From NCBI RefSeq assembly GCF_963921235.1, contig NC_086097.1, positions 96,536,001-96,600,000 of the forward strand: DNA of 64,000 bases, read 5' to 3'. Both the position numbers and the translations under genes were made by a program. Positions 7,306-61,124 of this stretch are shown here, one piece after another. The number at the start of each line of letters is the position of its first letter. Within the stretch, counting starts at the first letter, position 1. The notes beneath the pieces were generated by a model, which was not told where the DNA came from, ran no database searches, and worked only from the letters and a program-made list of their open reading frames with translations. The stretch comes from Mobula hypostoma (lineage: Eukaryota).

Positions 7306-7829
7306 CTGAGAGGGAATGTTGTCATACATCAAGCATGTAGGTAAAAGCAACTCCATGCAGTTGGTCAAAGTTCTGCTGTAATTGCATAGGGCTTTAGCAA
7401 GAGCATTATTTGAAATACTGAGCTAATTTTTGCTCCTCCTACCTAACTTAATATACACGTGCATTGCAATCAGTGTAATACAGATTCAATAGAATGATTC
7501 CTGTCCCAAGAGAAGTGAGCACTTAATCTTAATTAAATGTGAAAGAGTGATAAATGATACTGAGATGTAAAAGGATTCTAAGAGGTATTGACAAACAGAA
7601 GTCAAGAGACACTTTTCTACAGATGGCTAGTTCAGAACTATCCAGTTGTAGAAAATATTCTTAATTTTTACATCCTCTGATGATATAATATGGTTAGGCT
7701 TCGAAGAGTTATTTTTTGGAAACTAGGAGAATGAGGAAATAGGATCAAGGAGGAAAATGGAATAGCTACAGAATAAATCATCACCTTATTGAAAGGCAGA
7801 GCAGGCTCAAATAAACACATAACCTGCTC

Positions 7830-7958
7830 CTGACGAAGGGTCTCGGCCTGAAACGTCGACTGCACCTCTTCCTAGAGATGCTGCCTGGCCTGCTGCGTTC
7901 ACCAGCAACTTTTATGTGTGTTGCTTGAATTTCCAGCATCTGCAGAATTCCTGTTGTT
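7830..7958 (+). mobile_element. Solo Penelope terminal repeat starting at a hammerhead core
   Basis: CTGACGA-AGGGTCTCGGCCT-GAAA-CG-TC-GACTG at 7830-7862 followed by the terminal repeat and tail; TGCTCCTG repeated at 7825-7832 and 7959-7966. Confidence 0.85.
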
Positions 7959-8509
7959 TGCTCCTGCTTCTGTTTCTTTTGTTATACCCTTGTCTTTCAG
8001 AGAAGGAAATCTACCATCCTTATAGGTCTGGTTTATAATTGATTCCAGACACAGCGATGTGATTAACTTTTAACTCCCATCTAAGAGACCAAACTTCTAG
8101 TTTAGGACCAATGAAAGACTTACAATAAATGTTGTCTTGCCAAAAAGAATGTCATTTTGGAATACAGCTTGCTTATTGAGAGCAGGAAATCTGTATCAAA
8201 ACATGATTTTCAAAACCAAAAACCATGAATATTAGCAAAAATCAGGCTCATGAAAAACAGCATGAGAATCTGTCTTAAATATAAACACCTCAATTAATCA
8301 CTGCTGAAAAACTTTTAATTAATCTCTTTCTTGTGGAAAAATTGAACTTCAACACATTCATTTGCTCACTTTCACAGTGAGAAGCTAAGAAGGAATTTAA
8401 AATGTGTCTTTTGTTACTCTAAGGTTTTAACATATGAGGGAACAAAAACACGGCACTTCCCAATGGAAGTGACTAATATGTGCAGCTCAGGCACACATCT
8501 TTATTTTCT

Positions 8510-14207: not shown

Positions 14208-14595
14208 TAGATTAGATTTAGATTAGATTAGATTCAACTTTATTGTCATTGTGCCAAGTACAGATACAAAGCCAAAGAAATGCAATTAGCATCTAACCAG
14301 AAGTGCAAAAGAATAGTGTTATTTGCAAAATAACTGCGAATAAAAAATAAGTGCTACAGCATACAAATATAAAAGTACTGAGACAGTACAATATGGGTGC
14401 AGTACTGCTTAGCGCTGTGATGTGAGGTTCAGCAGGATCACAGCCTCAGGAAAGAAGCTCTTCCTGAGGCTGCTGGTGCAGGAGTGGAGGCTCCTGTAGC
14501 GCCTACCAGATGGGAGGAGAGTTAAAAAGTCCATAGTTAGGGTGAGATGCACCCTTGATAATGCTTTTCGCCCTGCCCAGCCAGCATTTATGGTA
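14208..14595 (-). mobile_element. Rex1/Babar-like LINE 3' end (continues at about 15600-15640)
   Basis: LLPSGRRYRSL..RLRKSFFPEAVILLN on the minus strand; (TAGAT)n tail at 14208-14234. Confidence 0.8.
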
Positions 14596-15590
14596 ACACA
14601 AGGAAATCTGCAGATGCTGGAAATTCAAGCAACACACAGAAAAACTGCTGGTGAAACGCAGCAGGCCAGGCAGCATCTATAGGAAGAGGTACAGTCGACA
14701 TTTTGGGCTGAGACCCTTCGTTAGGACTAACTGAAAGAAGAGATAGTAAGAGATTTGAAAGTGGGAGGGGCAGGGGGAGATCCGAAATGATAGGAGAAGA
14801 CAGGAGGGGGAAGGATGGAGCTAAGAGCTTAGGAAGTTGATTGGCAAAAGGGATACGAGGCTAGAGAAGGAAGAGGATCATGGGACGGGAGGCTGAGGGA
14901 GAAAGGCGGCGGGGGGGGCCTTCTATATATTGGTGAGACCCAACACAGGCTGGGAGACTGTTTCGCTGAACACCTACGCTCAGTCCGCCAGAGAAAGCAG
15001 GATTTCCCAGTGGCCACACATTTTAATTCCACATCCCATTCCCACTTTGATATGTCTATCCACGGCCTCCTCTACTGTCAAGATGAAGCCACACTCATGT
15101 TGGAGGAACAACACCTTATATTCCGTCTGGGTAGCCTCCAAACTGATGGCATGAACACTGACTTCTCTAACTTCTGTTAATGCCCCACCTCCCCTTCATA
15201 CCCCATCCCTTATTTATTTATTATTAATTTTTTTTCTTTCCCCCCTTTTTCCCTCTCTTTTTTCTCCCTCTGTCTCTCTCACTATAACTCCTTGCCCATC
15301 CTCTGGGTCTCCCCCCCTCCATTTCTTTCTCCCTAGGCCTCCCATCCTATGATCTTCTCCCTTCTCTAGCCTCGTATCCCTTTTGCCAATCAACTTTCCA
15401 GTTCTTAGCTCCATCCCTCCCCCTCCTGTCTTCTTCTATCATTTCGGATCTCCCCCTCCCCCTCTCAAATCTCTTACTATCTTTTCTTTCAGTTAGTCCT
15501 GACGAAGGGTCTCAGCCTGAAATGTCGATTGTACCTCTTCCTATAGATGCTGCCTGGCCTGCTGCGTTCCACCAGCACTTTTTGTGAGTG
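14596..15590. mobile_element. Neptune-like Penelope element in inverted (tail-to-tail) configuration
   Basis: Minus-strand terminal repeat (14596 to about 14915) joined to a plus-strand GIY-YIG C-terminus (LLYIGETQHRLGDCFAEHLRS..PVATHFN) and terminal repeat; TSD TTTATGGTA at 14587-14595 and 15591-15599. Confidence 0.88.
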
Positions 15591-15661
15591 TTTATGGTAG
15601 ATGTTCTCAATGGTGGGCAATTGGGTGCCGATAATCCGCTAGGAATACCCCTATATTCACT

Positions 15662-15862
15662 CACAACACGCTGGAGGAACTCAGCAGGTCGGGCAGCATC
15701 CATGGAAAAGATCGGTCGACGTTTCGGGCCGGAACCAAAGAGTTCCGGCCCGAAATGTCGACCGATCTTTTCCACGGATGCTGCCCGACCTGGTGAGTTC
15801 CTCCAGCATGTTGTGAGTGTTGCTTTGATCCCAGCATCTGCAGATTATTTTGTGTTTACAAT
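15662..15862. mobile_element. Fold-back (hairpin) Penelope mini-element
   Basis: Near-perfect inverted arms of about 75 nt around the loop CAAAGA, one-sided tail; 14-bp TSD CCCCTATATTCACT at 15648-15661 and 15863-15876. Confidence 0.9.
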
Positions 15863-46570: not shown

Positions 46571-47693
46571 CTAGCTCTTCCTAAGTTTTGCACAAACAAT
46601 ACAAAGAAAAAATTATCTGTTTCCTTAAGCTCATTGCAGGCGGCAGACAGACATGGGATTTCCATGATTTGCTGTCTACCTCAGAGTGTAGACGTTCATG
46701 CACTGCAGTCATCTAAGCTTGGTCTTTACAGAGATCTCCCTAGCAACTTCACGGTGGGTCTCCATGGCTCCCTCCCTTGCCTAAAGACCATGCCTCCTTC
46801 AAGTACTTCATTAGCAGCAAGTCTAGATTCCTCTAACCACCAGGGAGCACTCTTCCACAGCCCTTGTATTATTGTTACATTTATTCACAGGTATCGTCTA
46901 CAACTGGAAGTTTGTGGCTTGTACTACAGTATGTCCTTTGAGAGCTGGCTGCGGGGAGAGAACCATAGAACTATAGAACACTACAGCACAGAAAACAGGC
47001 CATTCAGCCCTTCTAGTCTGTGCCAAAACTTTATTCTGCTAGTCCCATTGACCTACACCCAGTCCATAACCCTCCAGACCTCTCCCATCCATGTATCTAT
47101 CCAATTTATTCTTAAAACTTAAGAGTGAGCCCGCATTTACCACATCAGATGGCAGCTTGTTCCACACACCCACCATTCCCTCAGTGAAGAAGTTCCCCCT
47201 AATGTTCCCCCTAAACCTTTCCCCTTTCACCCTAAAGCCATGCATCTTTCCTAATCTAAGTGGAAAGAGCCTATTCACATTTACTCTGCCTATACTTATA
47301 ATTTTGTAAACCTCTATGAAATCCCCCCTCATTCTTCTATGCTCCAAGGAATAAAGTCCTAACCTGTTTAATCTTTCCCTGTAACTCAACTCCTGAAGAT
47401 CCAGCAACATGCTAGTAATTCTTCTCTGCACTCTTTCAATCTTACTGATATCCTTCCTATAGTTAGGTGACCAGAACTGCACACAATACAAAGACAGTTG
47501 CAACTGGCTTAAACAGTCTCTTAAATATGTAGGATTGCTCCTTGTTTTGTTTTTATCCTTCAATTTACAAAATCAAAGATCCCATATCCATTTTAACTGC
47601 ACACAAAGACAAATGTAGGTCCCTTACAGTCAGAAACAGGTGAATTGATCATGGGGAACAAGGACATGGCAGACCAATTGAATAACTACTTTG

Positions 47694-47967
47694 AGCAACA
47701 CACATAAAAGTTGCTGGTGAACGCAGCAGGCCAGGCAGCATCGCTAGGAAGAGGTGCAGTCGACGTTTCAGGCCAAGACCCTTCGTCAGTCCTGACGAAG
47801 GGTCTCAGTCTGAAACGTCGACTGCAGTCCTGACGAAGGATCTTGGCCTGAAACGTCGACTGCACCTCTTCCTAGAGATGCGGCCTGGCCTGTTGCATTC
47901 ACCAGCAACTTTTATGTGTGTTGCTTGAATTTCCAGCATCTGCAGAATTCCTGTTGTTTGCGTTTTA
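47694..47967. mobile_element. Fold-back Penelope mini-element with three hammerhead cores
   Basis: Inverted arms of about 95 nt, an extra central 38-nt unit and a 42-nt one-sided tail; 14-bp TSD GAATAACTACTTTG at 47680-47693 and 47968-47981. Confidence 0.92.
47787..47862 (+). ncRNA. Tandem pair of minimal type I hammerhead ribozymes (predicted double hammerhead)
   Basis: Two 38-nt units CAGTC-CTGACGA-(13-nt stem-loop II)-GAAA-CG-TC-GACTG; stem I CAGTC/GACTG is perfect; helix III is reduced to palindromic ACGU; predicted cleavage after 47819 and 47857. Activity not shown. Confidence 0.75.
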
Positions 47968-50844
47968 GAATAACTACTTTGGTTCTGTCTTCACTAAGGA
48001 GGACATAAATAATCTTCCAGAAATAGTAGGGGACGGAGGGTCTAGTGAGATGGAGGAACTGAAGGAAATAGGGAAGTGGTGTTAGGTAAATTGAAGGGAT
48101 TGAAGGCAGATTAGTCCCCAGGGCCAGATGGTCTGCATCCCAGAGTGCTTAAGGAAGTAGCCCAAGAAATAGTGGACGCATTAGTGATGATTTTTCAAAA
48201 CTCTTTAGATTCTGGATTAGTTCCTGAGGATTGGAAGGTGGTTAATGTAACCCCGCTTTTTAAAAAAGGAGGGAGAGAGAAACCGGGGAATTATAGACCG
48301 GTAAGCCTGACATCGGTGATGGGGAAAATGCTAGAGTCAGTTATCAAAGATGTGATAACAGCACATTTGGAAAGCTGTGAATTCATCGGACAAAGTCAGC
48401 ATGGATTTGTGAAAGGAAAATCATGTCTGACGAATCTCATAGAATTTTTTGAGGATGTAACTGGTAGAGTGGTTAGGGGAGAACCAGTGGATGTGGTTAA
48501 TTTGGATTTTCAAAAGGCTTTTGACAAGGTCCCACACAGGAGATTAGTGTGCATACTTAAAGCACACGGTATTGGGGGTATGGTATTGATGTGGATAGAG
48601 AATTGATTGGCAGACAGAAAGCAAAGAGTGGGAATAAATGGGACCTTTTGAGAATGGCAGGCAGTGACTAGTGGGGTACCGCAAGGCTCAGTGCTGGGAC
48701 CCCAGTTATTTACAATATATATTAATGACTTAGACGAGGGAATTAAATGCAGTATCTCCAAGTTTGTAGATGGGTGGCAGTGTTAGCTGTGAGGAGGATG
48801 CAGGGTGACCTGGATAGGTTAGGTGAGTGGGCAAATTCATGGCAGATGCAATTTAATGTGGATAAATGTGAGGTTATCCACTTTGGTGGTAAGAACAGGA
48901 AAACAGATTATTATCTGAATGGTGGCCGATTAGGAAAAGTGGAGGTGCAACGAGACCTGGGTGTCATTGTACACCAGTCATTGAAAGTGGGCATGCAGGT
49001 ACAGCAGGTGGTGAAAAAGGTGCATGGTATGCTGGCGTTCATAGCAAGAGGATTCAAGTACAGGAGCAGGGAGGTACTACTGCAGCTGTACAAGGCCTTG
49101 GTGAGACCACACCTAGAGTATTGTGTGCAGTTTTGGTGCCCTAATCTGAGGAAAGACATTCTTGCCATAGAGGGGGTACAAAGCAGGTTCACCAGATTGA
49201 TTCCTGGGATGGCAGGACTTTCATATGATGAAAGACTGGATCGACTAGGCTTATACTCTCTGGAATTTAGAAGATTGAGGGGGGATCTGATTGAAACGTA
49301 TAAAATTCTAAAGGGATTAGACAGGCTAGATGCAGGAAGATTGTTCCCGATGTTGGGGAAGTCCAGAATGAGGGGTCACAGTTTGAGGATAAAGGGAAAG
49401 CCTTTTAGGACTGAGATGAGGAAAAACTACTTCACACAGAGAGTGGTGAATCTGTGGAATTCTCTACCACAGGAAACAGTTGAGGCCAGTTCATTGGCTA
49501 TATTTAAGAGGGAGTTAGATAAGGCCCTTGTGGCTAAAGGGATTGGGGGTATGGAGAGAAGACAGGTTCTGAGTTGGATGATCAGCCATGATCGTACTGA
49601 ATGGCAGTGCAGGCTCGAAGGGCTGAATGGCCTACTCCTGCACCTATTTTCTATGTTTCTATGTAATACTCCAAATCTGGCCTCACCAATGTCTTATACA
49701 ACCTCACTATAACATCCCAACTCCTACACTCAATACTTTGATTTATGAATGCTAGGATGCCAAAAGCCTTCTTTACAACCCTGTCTACCTGTGACACCAC
49801 TTTCAGGGAATTATGTATCTGAACTCCCAGATCCCTTTGTTCCTCCGCACTCCTCAGTGCCCTACCATCTACTGTGTATTTCCTACCTTGGGATGTCCTT
49901 CCAAAATGCAACACCTCACACTTGTCTGCATTAAATTCAATCTGCCATTTTCTGGCCCATTTTTCCAGTTGGTCCAGATCCCTCTGCAAGCTTTGAAAGC
50001 CTTCCTCGCTGTCCAAAATGCCTCCAATCTTAATGTCATCAGCAAACTTGCTGATCCAATTTACTACATTATTATCCAATGAGGTTGAATGCTTGCAACT
50101 ACATAAATTTCAACAGAGCAAGAAAATATATCATATAAACTGACAATAACTCTTCTATGAACCTTATAATTGAATATCTTTGTGGGATTTTCACGAACTG
50201 TGCTAGGTTCAACTCATCCTCTATGCTAACACCATGAAAAAGACTTAAGCACTTTCTTCCTTTTCCACACTATCACATTTATACTTTTATATTCATCTTT
50301 CAATCTCCCTTATGTTTATTATTCATTTTTTGCCATCTTGTCCTCCCATTCATAACTTATCTCTCCAACACCCAATGGTGACCATTAATTGTGCATGATA
50401 CCACACCTTTTCATTTTGTAAATTTAAGTGTTATTGTAGTAACATTTTTAATCCCATTTGCTCCTCAATCAGTTTACTTAAATACCAAGTTTGCTTGTTA
50501 GATTCCACTGTCTGATGTGGAGGAAAACTTGCAATAAAGACCAGTTGATACTGTGGCTTGATTTACTTGAACCAATATAGAAAATTGACTCTTCATTTTC
50601 TGTAACTTTCACAGTCTAGATGGATGGCACACAGATCAGTGTTCGACCTGTATTTAGATACAACTCAAAAAGAACCTGAATATTGCTCACTAACTTAAGT
50701 GGCGTTGAGGTTCATTTTTAAGGATACATATCGGTTCTGTAGAATCAATGTTCATAACTACGTATTGCTCCCACCTTTTCTAGTAAAAAATTAAATCAGT
50801 CAGAGCTATCTCCCTTGTCTACCTGGTATGCTGTAAAAGACCTA

Positions 50845-55083: not shown

Positions 55084-58000
55084 ATGAAGATGCTTCGCTC
55101 CGTAGGGTTGATTCTGGTCAGAAGGGGATCCCTGACCGTCATCAAGTTACTGCTCATAAAATTCAAGTAACACAAAAGAAAATTATTGCCACTTGGAATG
55201 TAAGAACCCTATATCAAGCAGGAAGATTGGACAATGTGATAAATGAAATGGAAAGACTAAAGATTAACATCATGGGAATTAGCGAAGTTCATTGGATAAG
55301 TGCTGGAACATACCAGAATAGAAATAAAACACTAATTTATTCTTGTGGAATATCCCATACTAATGGAGTAGGAATTCTTATGGATGACAACATGCAAAAA
55401 GTGTTTGAGGACATTGGGCAATATCAGAAAGAGTGCTCCTTGTTAGATTCAGAGGACAACCATTTGATTCAGCAATTATACAGGTATAAGCACCAACAAC
55501 AGATGGAACAAATGAAGATATAGATAAATTCTATGAAGAGCTTGAACAAGTAAAGAATGGATGCAAATCTCAAGATATTGTTATTGTCATGGGAGATCTA
55601 AATGTTAAAGTAGGACAAGTTGTTGACGGAAACACCATAGGAAAATTTGGACTGGGAGAAAGAAATGAAAGAGGTGAGAAATGGGTAGAATGGTGCAAGA
55701 TGAATAATCAGGACATTATGAATACCTACTTTAAAAACCATCCAAGACGCTTGTGGACCTGGAAAAGTCCAGGTGATAACACCAGAAATCAAATTGACTT
55801 TATTACTATAAACCAAAGATTTAGAAACTCAATGACTCAATGCAAAACATATACAGGTGCAGACTGTAATAGTGACCATAACTCGGTAGTGTGTCATGTA
55901 AAATTAAAACTTAAAAAACTAAAGCAGCAAAAACCTGAACAATCCCTTGACTACTTGCAATTAATTAAAGAAGAAAATTTAAGACAAAAATTTACAATTG
56001 AAGTAAGGAATAGATTTCAAAGTCTAGAAATAGAATCTGTTGAAGATGATAGCAATCATGTAGAAATCAAATTTAACTCTCTAAAGGATGCCTTGGTAGA
56101 ATCAGCAAAGTCAGTGATTCATAAAAAAGGAAAAAGCACAAAGAATAAATGGATGACAGATGAAATCAAAAATCTGATGGAAGAAAGGAGACAGAAGAAA
56201 GCAAATCCTATAGAATATAAGTCCTTAGATAAAAAAGTTAAAAGCTTATGTCAAAAAGCCAAAGAAGAATAGATAAATCAGGAATGTGAACAAGCAGAAA
56301 GAATCCCTATTACAAAAAGGTTACATCAACAAATCAAGAATATCACAGGTAGAAAGCTCCTCTGTTCTTCAGGTGGATATTTGAAAGCAAAGGACGGTAC
56401 CATTATCATGGAAAAAGATGAGATTATAAACAGATGGACTGAGTATATTGAGAAACTGTTTGAAGACGATCGAGGTGAAAAACCAGAAATTAAGAAAAAC
56501 ATTGAAGGTCCAAGTATTTTAAAATCTGAAGTTCGTTATGCAATAAATAAGATGAAGAAAGGAAAGACAGCAGGTCCTGATGAATTAGTAATAGAACAAA
56601 TTATCACCCTTGAAGATTATGTAATTGAAAAACTTACTGATTTAATCAATGACATTTATGAGACTGGAATAATACCAGGAGAGATGAAAAAATCGGTATT
56701 TATCACTCTTCCTAAGAAACCTGGAGCAATAGAATGTGAATTACACAGGACCATAAGTTTAATGAGTCAAATCAACAAGATACTTCTAAGAATTTTGATG
56801 ACAAGAGGTAAAGTAGGATACAAGCTGAAATAGGTAAAGAACAATGTGGTTTTGTGAAAGACAAAGGTACAAGAAATGCAATATTAATGTTAAGGATACT
56901 ATTAGAATGAACTATTCAAGTGCAAAAAGATTTGTTTGTTTTATTGACTACACAAAAGCATTTGATAAAGTGAAGCACAATAAGTTATTTGAAATATTAC
57001 AGAAAACTCTAGATCTGGATTCAAAAGACCTCCGCCTAATGAGAAATCTGTACTGGGAACAAACTGCCACTGTAAGAATAGATGGAGAAGTGAGTCAGTT
57101 TACGAAAATCAAGAGAGGCGTTAGACAAGGGTGTGTTTTCTCCCCTGATATATTTAATATGTACAGTGAAACAGTATTACAAAAAATAAGAGACATCCTG
57201 GGAATCAAATTTGGCAGTGAAAACATCAATAATTTCAGATACGCAGATTACACTGTGTTAATTGCAAGTACGGAGGAAGAACTACAAAACTTAATTGATA
57301 TAGTTGTTGAAGAAAGTGCAAAAATGGGTCCATCTATCAATTGGAAAAAGGTAGAATGTATGGTGATATCCAAAAAGAAGGAGAATCCTATCTGCAGGCT
57401 AAGAATAAACGGGGAAGACACAACAAGTACAGAACTTTTGCTACTTAGGAAGCTGGGTGAGATCAGATGGCGGGTACGACATGGACATCAAAAGAAGAAT
57501 AGGGATGGCAAAACACATAAAAATTGCTGGTGAACGCAGCAGACTAGGTAGCATCTATAGGAAGAGGTACAGTTGACGTTTCGGGGCGAGACCTTTCATC
57601 CTGACGATGGGTCTTGGCCTGAAACGTCGACTGTCCCTCTTCCTATAGATGCTGCCTGGCATGCTGCTGCATTCACCAGCAATTTTTATGTGTGTTGCCT
57701 GAAATTACAACATCTGCAGATTTCCTCGTGTTTAGGGATGGCAAAAGACACCTTTACGAGAATGAACAGTATACTAACCAATACTAAACTAGGCATGACA
57801 ACCCGCCTTAGAGTACTGAAATGTTACGTTTATCCAGTTATGTTATATGGCTCAGAATGTTGGACAATATCTTGTAACATGAGGAAATGAATTGAAGTAG
57901 CAGAGATGTGGTTTTTGAGGAGAATGCAAAGAATATCATGGATGAAACAAATATCTAACGAGGATGTCATGAACAGAGCAAGCACAAAAAGAGAAATAAT

Positions 58001-60841: not shown

Positions 60842-61124
60842 TGATAGCCCACTATACCCTTTGAGATTACAGATCGTACAGATTTATAATGATAATCCAC
60901 TATACCGTTTGAGATTACAGATTGTACAGATTTATGATAGCCCACTATATCTCTTTGAGATTACAGGTTGTACAGATTTATAATGATAGCCCACTATATC
61001 CCTTTGAGATAACAGATTGTACAGGTTTATGATAGCCCATATATCCCTTGAGATTACAGATTGTACAGATTCATAATGATAACCCACTATATCCCTTTGA
61101 GATTACAGATTGTACAGATTTATA
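60842..61124. repeat. Minisatellite, six units of 45-49 bp
   Basis: Consensus TGATAGCCCACTATATCCCTTTGAGATTACAGATTGTACAGATTTA(TAA); units start at 60842, 60890, 60935, 60984, 61030 and 61077. Confidence 0.95.

Follow-up and report, generated by a model that had tools for sequence, protein, structure and literature searches.

The reverse transcriptase of Penelope elements is the sister group of telomerase reverse transcriptase. The end repeats of metazoan Penelope-like elements (PLEs) contain minimal hammerhead ribozymes (min-HHRs), which combine the conserved core with a helix I of 4–5 bp and an extra unpaired base before helix II (PMC4209133, Cervera and De la Pena 2014), as well as a palindromic 15.2–16.2 stem that has no loop 3; they are mostly single and dispersed, with some pairs on opposite strands (PMC4209133). 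Dimers and trimers of these motifs cleaved weakly and the monomer did not (PMC4209133), while the hammerhead of a lizard PLE is described as cleaving only with protein, as being dispensable for insertion, and as having no RNA-seq reads with a start or an end at its cut site (PMC11167929). What the hammerhead does in PLEs has been called unclear (PMC8557442), and how PLE tandems arose was left open (PMC2377424). The canonical insertion of an endonuclease-bearing (EN+) PLE is a 5'-truncated copy with an adjacent inverted copy, a tail of 30–40 bp at one end, a target duplication, and microhomology at the inversion (PMC8557442, PMC3846280, PMC11167929).

Two further groups of systems come close to what is described here. 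Non-LTR retrozymes consist of head-to-tail type I hammerheads derived from PLE end repeats, in which dimers could supply helix III (PMC7229834, bioRxiv 10.64898/2026.07.22.740005); their monomers measure 150–450 bp (PMC7229834) or 51–972 bp (bioRxiv 10.64898/2026.07.22.740005), and they are propagating families with circular RNAs where tested (PMC7229834). In the end-to-end jumping of R2-type reverse transcriptases, in DRT2, and in telomerase, the enzyme reaches the 5' boundary of its template and resumes at a fixed point, giving head-to-tail cDNA repeats (PMC11371274, PMC12039810).

Here we analyze a 64,000-nt stretch of the genome of Mobula hypostoma (GCF_963921235.1, NC_086097.1, 96,536,001–96,600,000, forward strand; hereafter the window), in which two hammerhead motifs abut within a hairpin-forming insertion. 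The insertion has the EN+ PLE layout, namely an end repeat with a hammerhead, an inverted 5'-truncated partner, a one-sided tail, and a target duplication, and its inversion likewise involves microhomology; unlike the units described in those papers, it adds a ribozyme-sized unit at its 5' junction, in a register that recurs elsewhere in the genome. Its family resembles the min-HHRs in core, helix I, unpaired base, palindromic stem, location, and mostly single, dispersed occurrence with some opposite-strand pairs, whereas the min-HHR tandems described in PMC4209133 lie about 3 kb apart, or 100–700 bp apart on opposite strands, and ours abut at 38 nt; the young subfamily also has G-U at 10.1–11.1, where the motif of that study has G-C. 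In contrast to the retrozymes, the present unit is 38 nt long, is almost only ribozyme, occurs in two copies, and does not belong to a propagating family. It does fall within the loose two-unit definition of a retrozyme (bioRxiv 10.64898/2026.07.22.740005), with full cores and a damaged helix II; under the definition as a propagating 150–450-bp family it does not, since its 13 exact junctions lie in varied haplotypes and flanks. The events also differ from R2, DRT2, and telomerase in being rare, imprecise by 1–2 nt, lacking an alignment region, and being read from genomic junctions alone.

We consider the locus a target-duplicated insertion of a PLE end repeat, whose hammerhead was likely doubled by a template jump of the reverse transcriptase at insertion and is predicted to be inactive here (probability about 0.7). 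The ribozyme motif and the PLE insertion layout are already known, and the 38-nt junction register is the new part: our literature search, outside which most subscription literature fell, found no paper on registered ribozyme-sized duplications at PLE 5' junctions.

The Insertion and Its Family

The insertion comprises 274 bp (47694–47967) between two copies of a 14-bp target duplication, and represents the end repeat of a Penelope-like retrotransposon that has been amplified enormously (Table 1). It lies in a broken LINE, presumably a CR1, and contigs of the uninterrupted LINE repeat, from other copies, lack the 288 bases. An inverted arm without a tail is followed by the extra unit and then by the main arm with its tail of about 40 nt; the arms 47694–47794 and 47825–47925, 93% complementary, bear out the hairpin setting described in the sequence-only reading. 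The extra unit overlaps the end of the inverted arm by its first three bases.

Table 1. Coordinates of the insertion at the present locus and of its host (positions in the window)
Feature	Position	Strand	Basis or remark
Target-site duplication, left copy, 14 bp	47680..47693	+	sequence repeat
Inverted 5'-truncated arm of Penelope-like end repeat, without 3' tail	47694..47789	-	5 differences in 96 nt from right arm
Third hammerhead core, without 5' strand for helix I	47757..47789 (core match 47766-47789)	-	preceded by CAGGA
Unit 1, extra hammerhead unit	47787..47824	+	predicted cut after 47819
Unit junction, palindromic; inner 3-bp helix I with UGCA loop if the double fold forms	47820..47829	+	same junction at 13 genomic places
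Unit 2, hammerhead unit at 5' end of main arm	47825..47862	+	predicted cut after 47857
Remainder of end repeat, downstream of ribozyme motif	47863..47925	+	part of main arm
3' tail, about 40 nt, on one arm only	47926..47967	+	tail type as in PMC11167929, PMC8557442
Target-site duplication, right copy, 14 bp	47968..47981	+	sequence repeat
Host, broken LINE reverse-transcriptase region	47982..49709	+	RVT_1 PF00078, E 2.8e-14, at 48115-48603

Long copies of the family (L023, L039, and others) encode a reverse transcriptase followed by a C-terminal GIY-YIG domain, with a CX2-5CxxC linker, these motifs being read from translations. The GIY-YIG domain scored just under the cut-off of PF01541, and the reverse-transcriptase piece had no match to a Pfam reverse transcriptase or in the PDB; in the Atlas, its neighbours at 0.97 belong to eukaryotic HTH_animal clusters, of which one has RVT_1 in 19%. 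The family is an EN+ PLE, putatively Neptune-like by its linker motif only. Of the other copies of the end repeat in the window (7828–7961, 14595–14728, 15495–15592, and 57508–57733), one is young and 5'-truncated, two form an older inverted pair with about 770 bp between them, and one is a hairpin copy; there are also more than 10 older relics. A sister Penelope-like family (15677–15844 in the window; L212, L222, and L228), also linked to a GIY-YIG frame, has the same core and helix II with another loop and downstream sequence. Separately, the window contains about six tandem copies of a 49-nt unit unrelated to the insertion (60842–61124).

The Two Hammerhead Units

The two abutting 38-nt units are present as first read, each with the layout CAGTC-CTGACGA-13 nt-GAAA-CG-TC-GACTG. 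Both contain the core CUGANGA...GAAA...UH with every single-stranded core base intact, both have the palindromic ACGU that would require a partner for helix III, which supports their assignment to the Penelope-type minimal type I hammerheads, and the predicted cuts are correctly placed from the core bases and ACGU. The duplication is not exact, contrary to what had been stated: the units agree at 34 of 38 positions, and each of the four differing sites falls within helix II or its loop. When every column of 63 family arms is represented by its most frequent letter, the departures are at 47807 and 47809 in unit 1 and at 47840 and 47844 in unit 2, and each of them is a transition. One G-C pair of helix II has become G-U in unit 1 and an A-C mismatch (47840) in unit 2, the mismatch being unique to the present locus among the 13 loci with the same junction; the third pair is weakened in unit 1 and broken in unit 2, and helix II of unit 1 has one Watson-Crick and three G-U pairs. 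The extra unpaired A before helix II is present, its closing pair is G-U, and the C-variant of that pair occurs in 13 of the 63 family arms.

Stem I, said to be perfect, does form 5 bp in each unit taken as a monomer, although the read-through form of the family has TAGTC, the C being derived from junctions. In a double-hammerhead fold the claim is not confirmed, since the two strands of the swapped inner helix I abut and limit it to 3 bp with a UGCA loop. A pattern for helix I covariation (a forced change at the first pair) gave 34 matches, of which the 20 inspected were mostly decayed copies of the sister family, and the T-A cases are explained by common transitions. The third core claimed on the opposite strand is likewise there, though without its helix I: CAGGA stands before it on the minus strand and is unable to pair with GACUG. 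An Rfam scan of the whole window returned no match at the gathering score, and one of 47600–48050 returned no hammerhead family at E<=10, only sub-threshold microRNA-hairpin matches.

Folding and Predicted Activity

A double fold can be drawn in cis, with a 4-bp helix III (ACGU with ACGU) and helices I of 5 bp (outer) and 3 bp (inner). The isolated 76-mer favours a different fold; the double fold, when imposed, is worse by 19 kcal/mol in the 76-mer alone and by about 65–66 kcal/mol in context. The whole element folds at -198 kcal/mol (z -23.6), and in all eight transcript models that contain both units (of 12 prefixes) the pair probability of helix III is 0.000. The inverted arm, which precedes the units in transcription order, is predicted to bury the cores in a duplex of about 100 bp. 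Intact tandems of the family that lack an arm also cost 15–22 kcal/mol for the double fold, which means that the energy model cannot rank catalytic activity and only the penalty of the arm is telling. As nearest-neighbour folding under-rates hammerhead junctions, the excised 76-mer may keep weak cleavage in vitro. Among genomic copies, core CpG bases decay like loop CpG bases, and this comparison revealed no selection on the core in inserted copies.

Tandem Hammerheads across the Genome

In the 3.48-Gb genome, 53,222 sites match a degenerate 33-nt core pattern and none matches the reversed control, so that hammerhead cores occur far above chance; a downstream 26-mer of the end repeat has 85,845 matches. 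The genome-wide count of tandem units proposed in the sequence-only reading gave 113 junctions with gaps of 0–30 nt, about 0.2% of cores, and the exact junction of the present locus occurs at 13 places. These tandem counts come from exact patterns and are lower bounds, and arrays enter more than once in the sets of 113 junctions and of 112 matches (below).

Periods range from 13 to more than 80 nt, and many of them break a ribozyme. Of the 113 junctions, 100 are listed, and 46 of these have periods of 37–40 nt. A pattern allowing a partial first unit gave 112 matches, to which 87 with longer gaps can be added; among the 100 listed of the 112, period 13 was found 17 times, 14–34 40 times, 35–36 seven times, 37–40 30 times, and 41–43 six times, and in the 57 with periods of 13–34 the first unit is nearly always cut short. 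The spread of periods, including those that destroy a unit, shows that duplication does not respect the integrity of the ribozyme. The peak at 37–40 nt is real by binomial tests in which array junctions are counted repeatedly. Each tandem locus has separate flanks, and most have their own target duplication; a script found one of 10–16 bp at 44 of 53 loci. The 13-nt duplications at the core start (the 17 above, among 100 of 112 matches) use GTC microhomology. Eight occurrences of the same hammerhead tandem lie inside one region of about 104 kb (G000:C90:4119649-4223765), often at spacings of about 3.5 kb; a larger amplified repeat probably carries them.

The Junction Register

Junctions were compared at 52 short-period loci, made up of the 13 with the exact junction and 40 more tandem loci, chosen by eye mostly at periods of 35–40, leaving out a 62-nt array (L232); the register counts are hence not an unbiased sample. 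At 39 of the 52 loci of this hand-picked set, the end of the first unit falls 4 nt past GAC, which is 7 nt past the cut site and 2–3 nt past helix I, and this end recurs across three subfamily sequences. The next unit begins 3–4 nt before the core, i.e., at helix I, in 51 of these 52. Ten of the junctions in this set are blunt, 15 have an overlap of 1–2 nt (the present locus has one of 1 nt), and 27 have inserted bases, single inserted bases being G in 15 of 21. No first unit reaches more than 10 nt upstream (0/52), whereas among 85 unbiased arms reaching the core 56 do. A few junction types recur, in 14, eight, and six of the 52 loci; the commonest is found on at least five downstream haplotypes and the second commonest on three. 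The missing upstream extension, together with an exact junction on several downstream haplotypes, indicates that the doubling was made at insertion, and the register and the missing upstream sequence point to a registered jump of the reverse transcriptase from the RNA's 5' end. In three loci (L052, L240, and L251) a base of another subfamily stands in the linker; this weakly hints at a jump between molecules, if the same linkers are not parsed as 2-nt inserts.

Fold-back through the palindromic TGCA was considered as a general cause and rejected, because the TGCG and TGTA subfamilies share the same register and, among their loci, only one (L063) has a palindromic linker. Longer arrays also occur. 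L232 (G000:C50:67865900-67867000), with eight head-to-tail 62-nt hammerhead units, one junction, and one 14-bp target duplication, is a retrozyme-like array born in one insertion, and L053, L058, L062, L063, L007, and L246 are arrays of 3–5 units with periods of 35–40 nt. Linkers differ within L062 and L007, and are identical within L053, L063, and L232.

The 5' Ends of Family Insertions

Among 100 downstream-anchored arms, 13 have their break within a stretch of 5 nt at the start of helix I, and three start near the cut site (+26..+30). Genome-wide, two patterns for 5' ends at helix I have 4,469 and 3,413 matches, and a pattern for starts at the cut site has 1,124, versus 642 for a control position. 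By eye, true truncations make up about a third (cut site) and a quarter (control) of the 100 matches listed, which puts insertions that start at the cut site at about twice the control and about 10 times rarer than those at helix I. Ends defined by the cut site were rejected as the source of the units, given that so few arms start there and that the tandem junction does not lie at the cut site. An extra G was not evident by eye at plain target-to-element junctions of 60 loci, so the excess of G is claimed for tandem junctions only. In family copies such as L037, a pyrimidine tract ending in two AG directly before helix I resembles a 3' splice site, and the end of the intron of D. virilis Penelope maps to the 5' end of helix I (PMC4209133); the tract is an alternative cause of the pile-up of 5' ends.

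A Proposed Route to the Doubled Unit

Template jumping with 'extra template' junctions is described for R2 proteins (PMC11371274), non-templated bases for R1 and R2 junctions (PMC2718515), an extra G derived from the cap for L1 5' junctions (PMC11702581), and an inverted 5'-truncated copy with a tail for PLEs (PMC8557442). On this background, the doubling probably proceeded as follows. Many element RNAs would start, probably with a cap, on the first helix I bases (AGUC or GUC). The reverse transcriptase would prime at the nicked target, copy about 100–140 nt, and run off the RNA's 5' end, often adding one C, read as the extra G. It would then resume 6–7 nt 3' of the cut site, which is just past helix I, either on the RNA it has left or on a partner RNA, and copy the motif again, sometimes several times; the strand of re-entry would be the one that pairs with the RNA's 5' end in a folded monomer or a swapped dimer. 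A second cDNA, primed from the other target strand and joined via 2–3-nt microhomology, would give the inverted arm. The copy would thereafter decay neutrally, and the arm would bury the cores in any read-through transcript. A loop variant at a single CpG site, common to the inverted arm and unit 2 and missing from unit 1, fits this re-copying account. A more specific version, which we regard as rather unlikely, is that the 37–40-nt tandems are the fossil of structure-guided repeat synthesis, in which the Penelope reverse transcriptase runs off the capped end of helix I and lands on the strand paired with it, in the same RNA or in a swapped dimer, so that the ribozyme is copied anew one or more times.

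Alternative Explanations

The main rival to a jump on RNA is a DNA-level origin, in which slippage or microhomology-mediated templated repair doubled the unit while the 5' junction was being closed. The position of the units exactly at that junction and the 1-nt overlap at the present locus agree with it, and the arrays with identical linkers fit later slippage; moreover, the period-13 tandems and many of 45–60 nt use plain microhomology and could be products of such repair. At the short periods, however, 37 of the 52 junctions are blunt or have inserted bases, mostly G, the end at +4 is fixed in three subfamily sequences, and three linkers, unless parsed as 2-nt inserts, carry a base of another subfamily, so that we hold a DNA-level origin of the extra unit to be unlikely. 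Descent of the tandems from one or a few non-autonomous, retrozyme-like elements that already had two units would account for the recurrence of a few junction types, and non-LTR retrozymes with consensus units from 51 bp have been proposed to derive from PLE end repeats (bioRxiv 10.64898/2026.07.22.740005). Yet the commonest junctions lie on several downstream haplotypes, periods and linkers number in the dozens, and total numbers are tiny, which leaves such inheritance very unlikely. Least credible of all is an error of assembly. Contigs of four public runs do not span the junction with 31 letters to either side, a test made uninformative by the repeat context, and the lack of contig cover of the unique flank 47522–47593 in two runs guessed to be RNA is uninformative too. 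The units differ at four sites, and 12 other places, whose flanks are unrelated, have the identical junction.

The sequence-only reading had proposed that the tandem works as a cis double hammerhead, in which cuts after 47819 and 47857 release a 38-nt unit that might then circularise. Both units do have all core bases, the double fold can be drawn, and dimeric and trimeric min-HHRs have shown the weak cleavage that the monomer lacks (PMC4209133). Set against this are a helix II that has decayed in both units, an arm duplex that is predicted to lock the cores away and leaves helix III a pair probability of zero, and the precedent of a PLE hammerhead that needs protein, is dispensable, and leaves no reads at its cut site (PMC11167929). 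Tandems are also a small share of cores, mostly at other periods, some of which destroy a unit. A functional cis double hammerhead at 47787–47862 is thus very unlikely, because tandems break ribozymes at many periods and the arm is predicted to bury the cores, and the release of a 38-nt circle is not supported; the motif at the present locus is real but ordinary and probably dead. The reading as a PLE end-repeat insertion doubled by a template jump is the one that we retain.

Implications for Penelope-like Elements

As a ribozyme, the present locus is an ordinary and damaged member of a known motif class with more than 50,000 copies, and intact natural tandems without an arm (e.g., L012) are better suited to tests of dimer cleavage in cis. 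Its use lies in the population of junctions to which it belongs, which is a modest new clue to PLE reverse transcription: junctions at nearly the same bases may record how the PLE reverse transcriptase jumps. A jump fixed between the beginning of helix I and the bases just past its other strand makes a concrete prediction, testable in vitro with a PLE system of the kind in PMC11167929, and suggests a way in which PLE end repeats could give rise to retrozyme-like arrays. If the structure-guided version were true, the junctions would be in vivo evidence for the formation of helix I, and perhaps of the dimer, within the retrotransposition complex, and the arrays would mark the step at which minimal retrozymes are born.
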